Below are positions 6,001-12,000 of a stretch of 64,000 nucleotides of DNA, piece by piece. Location of the stretch: assembly GCF_003790525.1 (NCBI RefSeq), contig NZ_CP033632.1; one strand, written 5' to 3'. How positions within the stretch are numbered: position 1 is the stretch's first letter; every line of letters starts with the position of its first letter. The stretch is from Escherichia coli. GTDB taxonomy: Bacteria; Pseudomonadota; Gammaproteobacteria; Enterobacterales; Enterobacteriaceae. The position numbers are program-made.

Positions 6001-9000
6001 GATACCGGCCTCCATCGGAGAAACTGTCCGAGGTTATGTTGACGATGCCGAAAATGATGAGCGATTTATTCATGGGGGCTTCTATAATAATAATAATCGA
6101 GCATGAGTCTCATACGGATGCTCGGGTCGAAAGGGAATCCCCAGGCGAGTAACCTGTTTGCGGTGATCCATTAGCTGCAGGAGCAGAATAGCATACATCT
6201 GGAAGCAAAGCCAGGAAAGCGGCCTATGGAGCTGTGCGGCAGCGCTCAGTAGGCAATTTTTCAAAATATTGTTAAGCCTTTTCTGAGCATGGTATTTTTC
6301 ATGGTATTACCAATTAGCAGGAAAATAAGCCATTGAATATAAAAGATAAAAATGTCTTGTTTACAATAGAGTGGGGGGGGTCAGCCTGCCGCCTTGGGCC
6401 GGGTGATGTCGTACTTGCCCGCCGCGAACTCGGTTACCGTCCAGCCCAGCGCGACCAGCTCCGGCAACGCCTCGCGCACCCGCTGGCGGCGCTTGCGCAT
6501 GGTCGAACCACTGGCCTCTGACGGCCAGACATAGCCGCACAAGGTATCTATGGAAGCCTTGCCGGTTTTGCCGGGGTCGATCCAGCCACACAGCCGCTGG
6601 TGCAGCAGGCGGGCGGTTTCGCTGTCCAGCGCCCGCACCTCGTCCATGCTGATGCGCACATGCTGGCCGCCACCCATGACGGCCTGCGCGATCAAGGGGT
6701 TCAGGGCCACGTACAGGCGCCCGTCCGCCTCGTCGCTGGCGTACTCCGACAGCAGCCGAAACCCCTGCCGCTTGCGGCCATTCTGGGCGATGATGGATAC
6801 CTTCCAAAGGCGCTCGATGCAGTCCTGTATGTGCTTGAGCGCCCCACCACTATCGACCTCTGCCCCGATTTCCTTTGCCAGCGCCCGATAGCTACCTTTG
6901 ACCACCATGGCATCAGCGGTGACGGCCTCCCACTTGGGTTCCAGGAACAGCCGGAGCTGCCGTCCGCCTTCGGTCTTGGGTTCCGGGCCAAGCACTAGGC
7001 CATTAGGCCCAGCCATGGCCACCAGCCCTTGCAGGATGCGCAGATCATCAGCGCCCAGCGGCTCCGGGCCGCTGAACTCGATCCGCTTGCCGTCGCCGTA
7101 GTCATACGTCACGTCCAGCTTGCTGCGCTTGCGCTCGCCCCGCTTGAGGGCACGGAACAGGCCGGGGGCCAGACAGTGCGCCGGGTCGTGCCGGACGTGG
7201 CTGAGGCTGTGCTTGTTCTTAGGCTTCACCACGGGGCACCCCCTTGCTCTTGCGCTGCCTCTCCAGCACGGCGGGCTTGAGCACCCCGCCGTCATGCCGC
7301 CTGAACCACCGATCAGCGAACGGTGCGCCATAGTTGGCCTTGCTCACACCGAAGCGGACGAAGAACCGGCGCTGGTCGTCGTCCACACCCCATTCCTCGG
7401 CCTCGGCGCTGGTCATGCTCGACAGGTAGGACTGCCAGCGGATGTTATCGACCAGTACCGAGCTGCCCCGGCTGGCCTGCTGCTGGTCGCCTGCGCCCAT
7501 CATGGCCGCGCCCTTGCTGGCATGGTGCAGGAACACGATAGAGCACCCGGTATCGGCGGCGATGGCCTCCATGCGACCGATGACCTGGGCCATGGGGCCG
7601 CTGGCGTTTTCTTCCTCGATGTGGAACCGGCGCAGCGTGTCCAGCACCATCAGGCGGCGGCCCTCGGCGGCGCGCTTGAGGCCGTCGAACCACTCCGGGG
7701 CCATGATGTTGGGCAGGCTGCCGATCAGCGGCTGGATCAGCAGGCCGTCAGCCACGGCTTGCCGTTCCTCGGCGCTGAGGTGCGCCCCAAGGGCGTGCAG
7801 GCGGTGATGAATGGCGGTGGGCGGGTCTTCGGCGGGCAGGTAGATCACCGGGCCGGTGGGCAGTTCGCCCACCTCCAGCAGATCCGGCCCGCCTGCAATC
7901 TGTGCGGCCAGTTGCAGGGCCAGCATGGATTTACCGGCACTGTTGCAAAGTTAGCGATGAGGCAGCCTTTTGTCTTATTCAAAGGCCTTACATTTCAAAA
8001 ACTCTGCTTACCAGGCGCATTTCGCCCAGGGGATCACCATAATAAAATGCTGAGGCCTGGCCTTTGCGTAGTGCACGCATCACCTCAATACCTTTGATGG
8101 TGGCGTAAGCCGTCTTCATGGATTTAAATCCCAGCGTGGCGCCGATTATCCGTTTCAGTTTGCCATGATCGCATTCAATCACGTTGTTCCGGTACTTAAT
8201 CTGTCGGTGTTCAACGTCAGACGGGCACCGGCCTTCGCGTTTGAGCAGAGCAAGCGCGCGACCATAGGCGGGCGCTTTATCCGTGTTGATGAATCGCGGG
8301 ATCTGCCACTTCTTCACGTTGTTGAGGATTTTACCCAGAAACCGGTATGCAGCTTTGCTGTTACGACGGGAGGAGAGATAAAAATCGACAGTGCGGCCCC
8401 GGCTGTCGACGGCCCGGTACAGATACGCCCAGCGGCCATTGACCTTCACGTAGGTTTCATCCATGTGCCACGGGCAAAGATCGGAAGGGTTACGCCAGTA
8501 CCAGCGCAGCCGTTTTTCCATTTCAGGCGCATAACGCTGAACCCAGCGGTAAATCGTGGAGTGATCGACATTCACTCCGCGTTCAGCCAGCATCTCCTGC
8601 AGCTCACGGTAACTGATGCCGTATTTGCAGTACCAGCGTACGGCCCACAGAATGATGTCACGCTGAAAATGCCGGCCTTTGAATGGGTTCATGTGCAGCT
8701 CCATCAGCAAAAGGGGATGATAAGTTTATCACCACCGACTATTTGCAACAGTGCCAAGTAACGAGATATCAAAAGTTCTTGACGTTATACGAGGGATCGC
8801 CGAGCAAACGAATTTGTTGGCACTCAACGCAGCAATTGAGGCCGCGCGTGCTGGTGAGCAGGGGCGTGGTTTTGCTGTTGTCGCCGATGAGGTTCGCAGT
8901 CTTGCTGCTCGCACACAGCAATCGACAACGGATATTCAAAGCATGATCAGCGCTCTACAAGAGCGAGCGCAATCCGCTGTTACAGTCATGGAGCAAAGTA

Positions 9001-12000
9001 GTCGGCAAGCGCACACGAGTGTAGCTCACGCAGAGGAAGCAGCTACAGCTCTTGATGGAATTGGCCAACGCGTTAACGAAATTACCGACATGAACGCGCA
9101 AATAGCGACTGCGGTCGAGCAGCAGGGAGCAGTAAGTGAAGACATAAACCGCAGTATTATCAATATACGCGATGCTGCTGATACCAATGTACAGACCGGG
9201 CAGAATAATTTGCAAAGTGCGAAATCTGTCGCTCAGTTAACTAGCGCTCTGAGCGAACTGGCAAAACAGTTTTGGGAAAAACGAGGATAACGCTTTTCAG
9301 TATCTCGACAGGGATAACTTACTTTACCATCGGTTATCCCTTTTAGCCGCACAAATTTTAGCCATGGCTTTTCAGGAAGTCAGGGCTATCAGAATGGCCT
9401 TAGAAAGCCTAGTCAAAGAGCTGTCACGAGAACACCGTTAGCTTAGCGTACGATTTTTTCCGAATTCTGCGGTTCCCCCAAATACATCCTCCACCAAAGC
9501 ATCTTCGATTCCGAACACGATAAAAAAGGCGATGAGTTTTTCAACATCAACTGGAGCGAAATAACGACAGAGCATGTTCTGACGTTGTTATGCTGCTTCG
9601 CAACAGAATACAACAACGTGGTAAGCGCAGACTACATCAGGACAATGACAGACACCGTTACTAAACAAGACAACGAATATTCACCATATGAGCCATTTGT
9701 AAATATGATAAAAGCATTTTATCGGATGGAGCTCACTAAAGTTCCTCAAGGTAAATTAACAGGTAAGGATAACATCTTTTAAGCACAGTAATGAGGTGCT
9801 TAGATGTTCATATCAATATCCTAACTCTCTGCATCTCATAAATCTGATAGCCACTTACTATCTATGGACTCAATCTCCGTCAGCGGAATTGATGGGAAAA
9901 AATATCCCTGAGCGCCCCATAGCCCTATCCCTTTTGATAACTTATGGCAATCAATGTTTTCGACGCCTTCAGCGATGATATTCGGACATAACTTTTTTAA
10001 ATTGCTAATAATGACATCAAAATGAGGCTTAATCATATGCTCTTGAAAAAATGACTTATCAAGTTTTATTGCATGATATTTATTTTTAATTAATGCTTTC
10101 ATGGTGGCGTTACCACTTCCAAAATCATCAAGCCAAACATTATCTGTCAAAGTCAGTAGAAAGGATATGATGTAATCCTCATCGCTTAAATCAGGATAGT
10201 TTTCTGATATCTCAATCGCTATAAATTTATTGTTTATTAGTAGTTCTTGAATTTGTTTATTGCCATATATATATAAACAGGTATCATAATCTACATTGAT
10301 AGAGCATAATATATTATGGCATTCAAAAAAATACTTATACTTGATTATTGTGTTAAGTTGAGATTTTAGCAAGTTAATCTTCATCTTGCTTGTAAACATA
10401 CCTAATACTTTCTGAGTAGAAAGAATAGCCCCTCGTTGGAATAAAATCTGCTCAACACTTCCACTGCTATCAACTTGTTAGTGCTTGTGGAAATGATTGG
10501 TTCTACTATGTAGATAACTTCCATGCTCCCACCCTCTATTTTTAAATTGGTTGGCTTTAGCAGATAAAGTGCCCTTTATATTTACAGGGGTTACACACTA
10601 TGTCAATTTATTTATCTGTAGTGAAATTGATAAAAATTAAATAATAAAAAGCAGCAACTATGACACAAATCAATATTTTTATTTTTTGCACAACTTCTTG
10701 ATTTCAGTGCTGCTGTATCTCTATTCTTGTTCAAAGCCTCTTTAGAATGGTGGTAGCTATGTCAGGAGTCTGTTACTTCATCCTTATAAAGAAACCGATA
10801 AATTTTCAATTTCTTAAGGATTTCTTAATATTAAATTATGGTGATGTGCTGTTGCTTAAACATTCTGAACGCGAATTCTTACAAACCTATTCAGATAAAT
10901 ATATCGAATTCGAACTTAATGATAGTGCTGTAAGAAACTATTTATCTTGTCACAATCACCAAGGGAAGCAACTTCTGGATAAATGCCCACATTTGCTAAA
11001 AAAGTCTTTTGCTTATCCTGATTTATTAATCAGGATGATCGATAATATAAGTGACCAGAATCATATACATCCTGATTTTAAGGATGCTTTAACTTTTTCA
11101 TTACTTTCAATTTTTAGTGATGTTGACAACCTTAGAGCTTTTCTTAAGTCTGGTATGCCTACTTTCTCAGGGAAAGTACGCAGCATATTTCTTTCAGATG
11201 TATCTAAACATTGGAAACTAAGAGACTTAACTGATTATCTATACATAGTGAGAGTTTAATAAAGAAAAAACTCTTATTAGAAAACACCTCCTTCAGTAAG
11301 TTATTACTTGATACACGAATGGCTTTTGCTATTAAATTACTAAAGCAAACCCGCCCCCTCAAACAAGTATCAAAAAGTTGTGGTTTTAGTAGCATATCGT
11401 ACTTTGTGTGCCTATTTAGGCAGTATTATAATTGTACACCATGTGAATATGTAAAACATCAGTTATCATCTGGGAAATAAGATGCATTTATCTCCCAGAT
11501 AGTATTGTAATATTAAACTCAGTCAGCATTTAGTAGCAGAGCATTATCTATGATGATCTGCTCCCATTCTTCGAATGCCCGGTCGCGGACGCCCTGGGGA
11601 ACGCTGTTTGTTTTGAAATCGACGACCGTCCGCCATTTCCCGTCCGGACGGTACATGCGCAGAGCTTTACTTCCCCCTTCCCTGCGCACCTCAACGTTAT
11701 GCTTGTCAGCAAACTCTTGTAATGCTCGTAGCGTCCCATGCTTTACTGTGTAGTATCGCTTTTTCAAGTTTTCTCTCCAGCCTGTGCCAAGGCTTCAACT
11801 TCCAAATCGTAAGACTCAAACTCATAGTCCTGGTCGTCAACTTCTTCAGGGACTGGCAGTAAATGCCAGGCTGAGTATATCTGACCATTATCAAAACGCT
11901 CCTGGCTGTAGAGCGTCGCGGCTATGAGTGTTAGCGCCGGGCGGTCATAACGGTAAAATTTGCGAACGTCACGGTCAACGAGACGACCGAAATTACCATA

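Follow-up and report, generated by a model that had tools for sequence, protein, structure and literature searches.

A probable composite of Tn1721/IS26 debris and an inactivated EAL/AraC-type cassette at the restriction-modification site of a P1-like element of Escherichia coli

Introduction

In bacteriophage P1 (NC_005856) the genes mat, res, mod (with IS5), lxc, ulx and darB follow one another in this order, and the place taken by the EcoP1I res-mod genes has been published as 'variable region 1' of P1-like phage-plasmids, where a low GC content was reported as well (PMC9603915). We analyzed the corresponding place in a P1-like element of Escherichia coli, contained in a stretch of 64,000 nucleotides of contig NZ_CP033632.1 (RefSeq assembly GCF_003790525.1) which is here called the window. 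A first-pass annotation of this stretch described, between positions 8756 and 11480, a decayed signalling locus made of a chemoreceptor fragment, an EAL-domain gene and a gene of the AraC family, all three of them broken.

Parts of this interval resemble several described systems. PdeH (YhjH) is the main motility-promoting phosphodiesterase of cyclic di-GMP (c-di-GMP) in E. coli, and SfaY, encoded at the end of the S-fimbrial cluster of extraintestinal pathogenic E. coli, has been reported to be an active stand-alone phosphodiesterase of the EAL type (PMC6385356). YdiV (RflP) of E. coli and STM1697/STM1344 of Salmonella are EAL-like anti-FlhD4C2 factors; YdiV and STM1697 no longer possess DDFG, EGVE or the first E of E-x-x-E and act by protein-protein contact. 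An EAL gene known as xeal is present on the IncX1 plasmids pOLA52 and pIS15_43. Among regulators of the AraC type, YdeO and GadX activate acid resistance and Rns, CsvR and ToxT activate virulence genes, and such regulators are usually AT-rich and horizontally acquired. The orfI gene of Tn1721/Tn1722 encodes a methyl-accepting chemotaxis protein (MCP), and its truncation by IS26 is typical of IS26-bounded resistance regions.

Results

The interval is very probably a composite of two unrelated parts, Tn1721/IS26 debris and an inactivated 1.9-kb EAL/AraC cassette situated in the res-mod slot. From left to right, the sequence and a listing of open reading frames (ORFs) gave the order IS26, MCP remnant, a 38-bp repeat, the mat 3' end, the EAL gene, a spacer, the AraC-type gene, lxc, ulx and darB, the last three on the minus strand. 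BLAST comparison of the window with P1 showed that homology ends at window position 9647 (P1 3336, within mat) and restarts at 11523 (P1 9754, the lxc stop). The segment 9648-11522, which has no strand of its own, stands in for P1 3337-9753 (the mat 3' end, res, mod and IS5), that is, 1,875 bp take the place of 6.4 kb of P1. On the left, the 3' third of the maturation control gene mat, about 100 codons, lies on the plus strand at 9480-9782; it is 93.5% identical to P1, with homology only to 9647, and its 5' part has been lost at the Tn1721 junction. The right flank of the slot is formed by lxc (bof, 11519-11767) and ulx (11764-12204), which together (11519-12204, minus strand) are conserved P1 backbone of 98.2% identity. 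The flanks of the cassette are therefore those of the P1 EcoP1I locus, the mat 3' end and the lxc stop codon, but the content is a signalling cassette and no restriction-modification system. Its GC content is 32.3%, in comparison with 51% for the lxc-ulx-darB backbone. The P1 map, the homology break-points and this base composition agree with the earlier description of an AT-rich block where P1 carries res and mod. The suggestion that the place is a variable hotspot also proved right, both from the published variable region and from PLSDB, where lxc-ulx was found in about 698 plasmids, the EAL/AraC cassette in about 126 and a P1-type res in about 108. The matches of window features to many independent records are exact alignments, for which chance is not a concern.

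The left part of the interval begins with IS26 (7936-8755, minus strand, 820 bp), identified by reading its terminal repeats. It has the ends GGCACTGTTGCAAA...TTTGCAACAGTGCC with 14-bp terminal repeats and a single transposase (ORF 7988-8710), which carries the IS26 annotation in relatives. An 8-bp target duplication around it is absent, since its two flanks, truncated RSF1010 repA on the left and the truncated Tn1721 chemoreceptor gene on the right, are mutually unrelated. IS26 directly abuts the MCP remnant (8756-9290, plus strand; NCBIfam MCP families, E 2e-58), which agrees with the first-pass description of a chemoreceptor signalling-domain fragment cut by IS26. The remnant consists of the last codons, about 178, and the stop of Tn1721/Tn1722 orfI, has neither its own start codon nor a promoter, and corresponds to the C-terminal end of the 525-aa PAS-MCP WP_001323889 (99.9% over the whole query). 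Plasmid pLR-46_1 has this DNA as the 3' end of a complete PAS-MCP gene of 525 aa, and in phage SJ46 the genes around it are annotated as Tn1721 tnpA and tnpR. Beside orfI, at 9442-9479, lies a 38-bp terminal inverted repeat (GGGGGAACCGCAGAATTCGGAAAAAATCGTACGCTAAG on the minus strand) which, alongside the SJ46 annotation, we take to be the end of Tn1721. The repeat adjoins mat and marks the limit of the resistance region. Window 8760-9479 matched 3,588 plasmids, mostly resistance plasmids of Klebsiella and E. coli, and the matches of window 9479-11520 were confined to P1-like elements. The proposal that the chemoreceptor fragment was part of a signalling locus has to be abandoned, as the fragment is Tn1721 orfI which ends at the Tn1721 repeat; its sequence context indicates that it belongs to the upstream sul2-strAB/class 1 integron resistance region and not to the EAL/AraC locus. 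In comparison with other IS26-bounded resistance regions it is a standard fragment with no notable difference. The Tn1721 end is inserted in P1 mat and was cut subsequently by IS26, and 8756-9479 is the outer end of the resistance region, functionless debris. In pLR-46_1 (9441-10090 compared) and two other plasmids the same Tn1721 end lies in mat 141 bp further upstream, and among the PLSDB records that were listed as matches of the full query none showed the window's own 9479/9480 junction, which suggests either an adjacent deletion after the insertion or else a separate insertion.

The right part of the interval is a divergent gene pair conserved as a unit. Besides the P1-like plasmids counted above, the pair is present in phage Ro157c2YLVW and in a laboratory P1vir stock (OP279344). 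More distant versions exist on IncFII plasmids, beside repA and a ParE/RelB pair, and on IncX1 plasmids, beside hns-hha-topB, with protein identities of 65-67% for the EAL protein and about 80% for the regulator. This distribution is in accordance with the first-pass view of the two genes as an accessory pair. The ratio of nonsynonymous to synonymous substitution rates (dN/dS) was 0.07-0.15 in deep comparisons, with dS near saturation, and 0.11-0.13 for the regulator at an unsaturated dS of 0.5, which indicates that both genes evolved under purifying selection, with dN/dS of about 0.1. Between the genes lies an AT-rich intergenic (promoter) region of 234 bp (10525-10758, no strand), the regulator-proximal half of which is conserved in an alignment of the P1, IncFII and IncX1 versions and is a candidate operator or promoter. 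In the alignment over window 10495-10790, the regulator-proximal stretch of about 120 bp is far better conserved than the EAL-proximal half, and better than synonymous sites in the two genes, for which dS is about 1.5; TGTGACATAAATCAATA...CTTGATTTCTG...CTATTCTT is one such conserved stretch. Two short inverted repeats were observed in the gaps between convergent genes, AAGCAC...GTGCTT after mat (9783-9810) and ATCTGGGAAATAA...TTATCTCCCAGAT after the regulator gene (11465-11500). Both look like bidirectional terminators bounding the cassette, although the consensus terminator scan made no call there. A search of 8700-11600 against Rfam gave no match.

The stand-alone EAL-domain gene occupies 9836-10524 on the minus strand, as determined from the ORF listing, alignments and a profile match, and is a pseudogene here. 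In the window it has no uninterrupted reading frame and is read as two minus-strand ORFs, one of 40 aa (10402-10524) with AVEVLSRF, the 'EVL' variant, and one of 187 aa (9836-10399), as expected for the frameshifted EVL-type gene reported in the first-pass annotation. The intact allele encodes 229 aa (WP_000452096) and matches Pfam PF00563 at residues 8-210 (E 9.9e-18). We checked the residue set E-x-L-x-R, N, E-x-x-E, DDFG, K of (K/R)xDK, E-G-V-E and Q-G, and the intact allele retains all of it as EVLSR, SINV, EISE, DDFGSG, KLDKSF, AEGVE and AQGY, in columns that align with the active enzymes YahA and PdeH. The intact protein is thus apparently an active c-di-GMP phosphodiesterase. It shares with PdeH the stand-alone EAL architecture and all catalytic columns, but the identity is 25%, and the score against the PdeH model, the best among NCBIfam models, is 94 bits, under the family cut-off of 190, so it is not an orthologue. 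SfaY is likewise a small (both about 230-250 aa) EAL-only protein encoded on horizontally acquired E. coli DNA, with the catalytic residues kept and the same DDFGSGN loop. However, the two are only 24% identical, and SfaY is chromosomal, linked to a fimbrial operon and without a link to an AraC-type gene. With YdiV and STM1697/STM1344 the protein shares its size and single-domain architecture, but unlike YdiV and STM1697 it keeps all motifs. The xeal gene belongs to the same family; the copy in pOLA52 is truncated and 94.6% identical to the IncFII/IncX1 version of the cassette EAL gene. It is a 135-aa remnant left by an IS1/mrk insertion, has lost its AraC partner and is about 65% identical to the P1-type protein. 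Distant members of the family also include Pantoea proteins and, with 47-50% identity, a protein whose gene terminates a pap-like operon, beside a serine protease autotransporter (SPATE) gene and hlyCA.

The AraC-type gene (10759-11480, plus strand), identified in the same way, also lacks an uninterrupted reading frame and is split into ORFs 10747-11259 and 11319-11480, so the frameshifted AraC-family gene described earlier is indeed there, as a pseudogene of the YdeO/Rns type. Its intact allele encodes 240 aa and carries the C-terminal AraC/XylS region of about 100 aa with two helix-turn-helix motifs (Pfam HTH_18 4e-13, HTH_AraC 3e-9). The regulator is 33% identical to K-12 YdeO over its full length and scores 155 bits against the YdeO model NF007407 of NCBIfam (model 1-233), below the cut-off of 348, by which it is classified as a paralogue of YdeO and not an orthologue. 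The match of an AlphaFold model (pLDDT 80) to Rns, CsvR and ToxT extends through both domains, and the DNA-binding domain of the model has a TM score of 0.92 against PDB 3mkl, an AraC-type domain of E. coli K-12. Full-length similarity to YdeO and the Rns/CsvR/ToxT fold place the regulator with the described activators, which it also resembles in being AT-rich and horizontally acquired; it differs from them in that the window gene is frameshifted within the first helix-turn-helix. Other YdeO-like genes were seen on E. coli chromosomes, beside an EvgS/EvgA-like two-component system and a MotA-like gene (50% identical), and on IncFII plasmids, beside genes for K88-type fimbrial subunits (58% identical). 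A 206-aa gene upstream of a chromosomal YdeO-like homologue was considered as a hidden EAL protein and rejected (BLASTP E 0.5).

Both genes are null in this window, each by the loss of a single nucleotide. In the EAL gene, alignment with three relatives showed that one C is missing from a run of five at 10429-10432. The frame is lost after codon 32, and the EVLSR motif, which lies in the first 32 codons, is cut off from the remainder. The frameshift had been suggested at 10400-10420, where the resulting stop codon is indeed found; the lesion itself is about 10 nt away. In the regulator a G is lost after 11246 (ACATGAGTG becomes ACATAGTG), inside the interval 11235-11260 suggested earlier, and with the stop at 11257-11259 the protein breaks off in the recognition helix of its first helix-turn-helix. 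The four-C run is the single difference in 2,042 nt between the window and pS163-2.4, in which the regulator G is missing as well. The regulator frameshift allele is present exactly in 81 of 108 PLSDB plasmids, coming from many laboratories, and is annotated as 'frameshifted' by the RefSeq pipeline PGAP (for example in p573-4). From its distribution this lesion is judged an old mutation inherited across the plasmid lineage. The intact EAL allele with five C was found exactly in 85 of 126 plasmids, and the four-C allele in one of the 115 complete E. coli genomes with the locus, on plasmid p573-4, which has a different left flank. Because this independent plasmid shares it, the EAL frameshift is probably real, and it is probably recent. 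The window backbone is identical to MH422554 over 9,192 gap-free nucleotides, with three indels in a further 11 kb, so the assembly is not error-prone; an assembly riddled with homopolymer errors was ruled out by this comparison. In about 20 kb of backbone just one further single-base run differed in length, at window 44576, where four G stand against five in MH422554, in the GC-rich hairpin-like sequence CCCCGCACGGGGCG between two tail genes. Programmed frameshifting at either lesion was considered and rejected, as no slippery heptamer is present at CTATACATAGTGAG and the other site has only a run of four or five G on the coding strand.

Inactivation of the cassette in P1 lineages took several forms. 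Besides the C-run frameshift of this window, these are two lesions of the regulator gene, namely the -1 frameshift (main clade) and a 21-bp in-frame deletion which removes SLIKKKL from the first recognition helix, an insertion sequence of the IS3 family in the intergenic region (pB1W1 and E. fergusonii plasmids) and, in Ro157c2YLVW, an EAL gene frameshifted at a run of T. The 21-bp deletion is carried by OP279344 and is natural and not a laboratory artefact, because it is also the representative allele of 916 clustered sequences from public assemblies. In pB1W1-p1 (3055-4553) and the E. fergusonii clade in PLSDB both genes are intact, with the IS3-family element between them, just upstream of the block conserved beside the regulator gene. 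Both genes are intact, with an undisrupted intergenic region, in the P1-like contigs L033-L037, beside a full-length darB, which rules out obligatory decay of every P1-context copy. These copies indicate that decay of the cassette is frequent in P1 lineages and not universal. The first-pass description of a decayed accessory locus consequently holds for the EAL/AraC pair of this lineage; among other P1-like elements there are fully intact copies.

Discussion

In this plasmid the cassette is inert, through an inherited 1-nt deletion in the regulator and a further 1-nt deletion in the EAL gene. In an intact copy, the AraC-type protein would switch on the AT-rich divergent promoter region, by activation or by counter-silencing, and the EAL enzyme would then lower cellular c-di-GMP, which would drive the lysogen, or the host of the plasmid, toward a motile, low-matrix state. 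The intact cassette would in this way act as a module of lysogenic conversion or host manipulation rather than as a defence system. The AraC-type protein is likely to regulate the EAL gene, the evidence being the divergent arrangement and the conserved upstream DNA.

Several observations weigh against this explanation. The regulatory link is deduced from the gene arrangement and the conserved upstream DNA, and a scan of 9700-11600 for promoter and terminator consensus sequences found 8 promoter-like sites, where 10.1 were expected from shuffled sequence. Loop 6 reads DDFGSGNAT in place of the canonical DDFGTGYSS, so that its second half (GNAT) is non-canonical. Among solved structures, sequence similarity is highest to STM1697 and YdiV, anti-FlhD4C2 factors that are not enzymes, and truncated xeal, the sole tested relative we found, had no motility or biofilm phenotype, with the exception of less Congo-red binding upon overexpression (PMC5023117). 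The EAL lesion, finally, is in a homopolymer, so that an assembly error keeps some weight. The first-pass annotation had allowed that the frameshifts could be sequencing errors, in which case the genes of the plasmid would be intact. The change from five to four C, as the sole difference from pS163-2.4 and with a single counterpart among complete genomes, is what such an error would look like, but p573-4, a distinct plasmid, has the same allele, and the long gap-free identity to MH422554 with few indels does not fit a faulty assembly. The lesion of the AraC-type gene is outside a homopolymer, and its spread over most PLSDB plasmids with the locus and its pseudogene annotation in RefSeq contradict the error reading outright for this gene. 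Errors in both genes are on the whole very unlikely. Even less credence, practically none, can be given to the reading of the chemoreceptor, EAL and AraC genes as three members of one decayed signalling locus. The three are adjacent and all have domains of signalling type, but the Tn1721 terminal repeat and 300 nt of mat stand between the MCP fragment and the cassette. Most relatives have the cassette without the fragment (matches H6-H30 start at query position 720), and the thousands of unrelated resistance plasmids mentioned above, mostly of Klebsiella, have the fragment without the cassette. The match patterns among plasmids, the full-length MCP context and the analysis of the mat junction refute a single three-gene locus.

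As regards function, the main rival of a phosphodiesterase is a non-enzymatic protein of the YdiV/STM1697 type, which would bind FlhD4C2 and shut off flagellar genes. Matches to the solved structures of STM1697 (E 8e-28) and YdiV/CdgR (E 4e-19) are far better than to YahA/PdeL (1e-8), and a homologue is labelled 'ydiV' in one record. In YdiV and STM1697, however, GNLG or GDLG stands in place of DDFG and GGID or GGQE in place of EGVE, and E-x-x-E lacks its first E, whereas the cassette protein has no degenerate motifs and keeps all catalytic and metal-binding residues. These are kept in the P1, IncF and IncX1 clades and in the pap-linked relatives, which is hard to explain without catalysis, and SfaY, with the same DDFGSGN loop, is a reported active phosphodiesterase (PMC6385356). 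We therefore consider the non-enzymatic reading unlikely, and a module of defence or superinfection exclusion still less likely. Such a module would deplete c-di-GMP and so remove phage receptors that depend on it, for example the glycan made by NfrB and used by phage N4, or degrade cyclic-dinucleotide immune signals. It would be in accordance with the location of the cassette at the exact restriction-modification site of P1 and many relatives, beside the anti-restriction genes ulx and darB, and with the dependence of N4 infection of E. coli on a c-di-GMP-activated glycan synthase (PMC8669469, PMC8669472). Against it, a PADLOC scan of both proteins matched 0 families, and the same cassette is found in the non-defence contexts of the IncFII and IncX1 plasmids, in the latter beside hns-hha-topB. 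EAL domains are also, as a rule, specific for c-di-GMP. An equally speculative variant, to which we attach similarly little probability, is that the intact cassette is a phage-plasmid 'c-di-GMP sink' in the P1 defence slot, switched on by its own Rns/YdeO-type activator, which strips the lysogen of c-di-GMP-dependent surface structures and thereby could exclude phages dependent on them, such as N4-type phages with the NfrB glycan, or mobilise the host. It would be costly enough to be repeatedly inactivated, for which at least five separate lesions can be cited (the regulator frameshift, the 21-bp deletion, the IS3-family insertion and two EAL frameshifts).

The host-manipulation module proposed here is built of known parts. 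The components and the hotspot are known, and the cassette is annotated in hundreds of records, with one gene given as "EAL domain-containing protein" and the other as a frameshifted helix-turn-helix gene. In the literature we found neither a description of the P1-type EAL/AraC cassette or of what it does nor a paper that links 'P1-like' with 'EAL domain'. The copy in this window is of little importance in itself, being a dead accessory cassette beside transposon debris. About one sixth of P1-like plasmids, and at least one laboratory P1vir stock, have the cassette in the place that EcoP1I takes in textbook P1. Phages are known to carry few c-di-GMP enzymes (PMC10333796), and an intact copy would therefore be a tractable case of a temperate phage-plasmid rewiring the second-messenger signalling of its host. 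For users of P1vir it is of relevance that some stocks lack res-mod. The stock OP279344 (cassette at 3525-5150), used for Argonaute work, has the cassette in place of res-mod, and its record title reads 'del res del mod'.

Other features of the window

Because the window begins within the resistance region, the second junction of that region with P1 backbone genes (the mat 5' end, ref and cre) is out of view. The region 954-7935 is a typical multiresistance region and starts with a class 1 integron made of aadA1 (954-1799), dfrA1 (1838-2311) and intI1 (2468-3586), which is followed by strB, strA, sul2, RSF1010 repC and repA truncated by IS26. On the other side of the cassette, in window 12238-38000, darB is 5'-truncated, with an ORF of 1,350 aa in comparison with 2,255 aa in P1. 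Since darB and mat are both truncated, the element is, by its gene content, probably not a functional phage. After darB follow a Phd/YefM-RelE pair (16789-17324), IS1 and a gene for a 1,171-aa autotransporter (18635-22150). Further cargo of about 20 kb not found in P1 has three copies of IS1, and window 39-63 kb is P1-like backbone of 99-100% identity.

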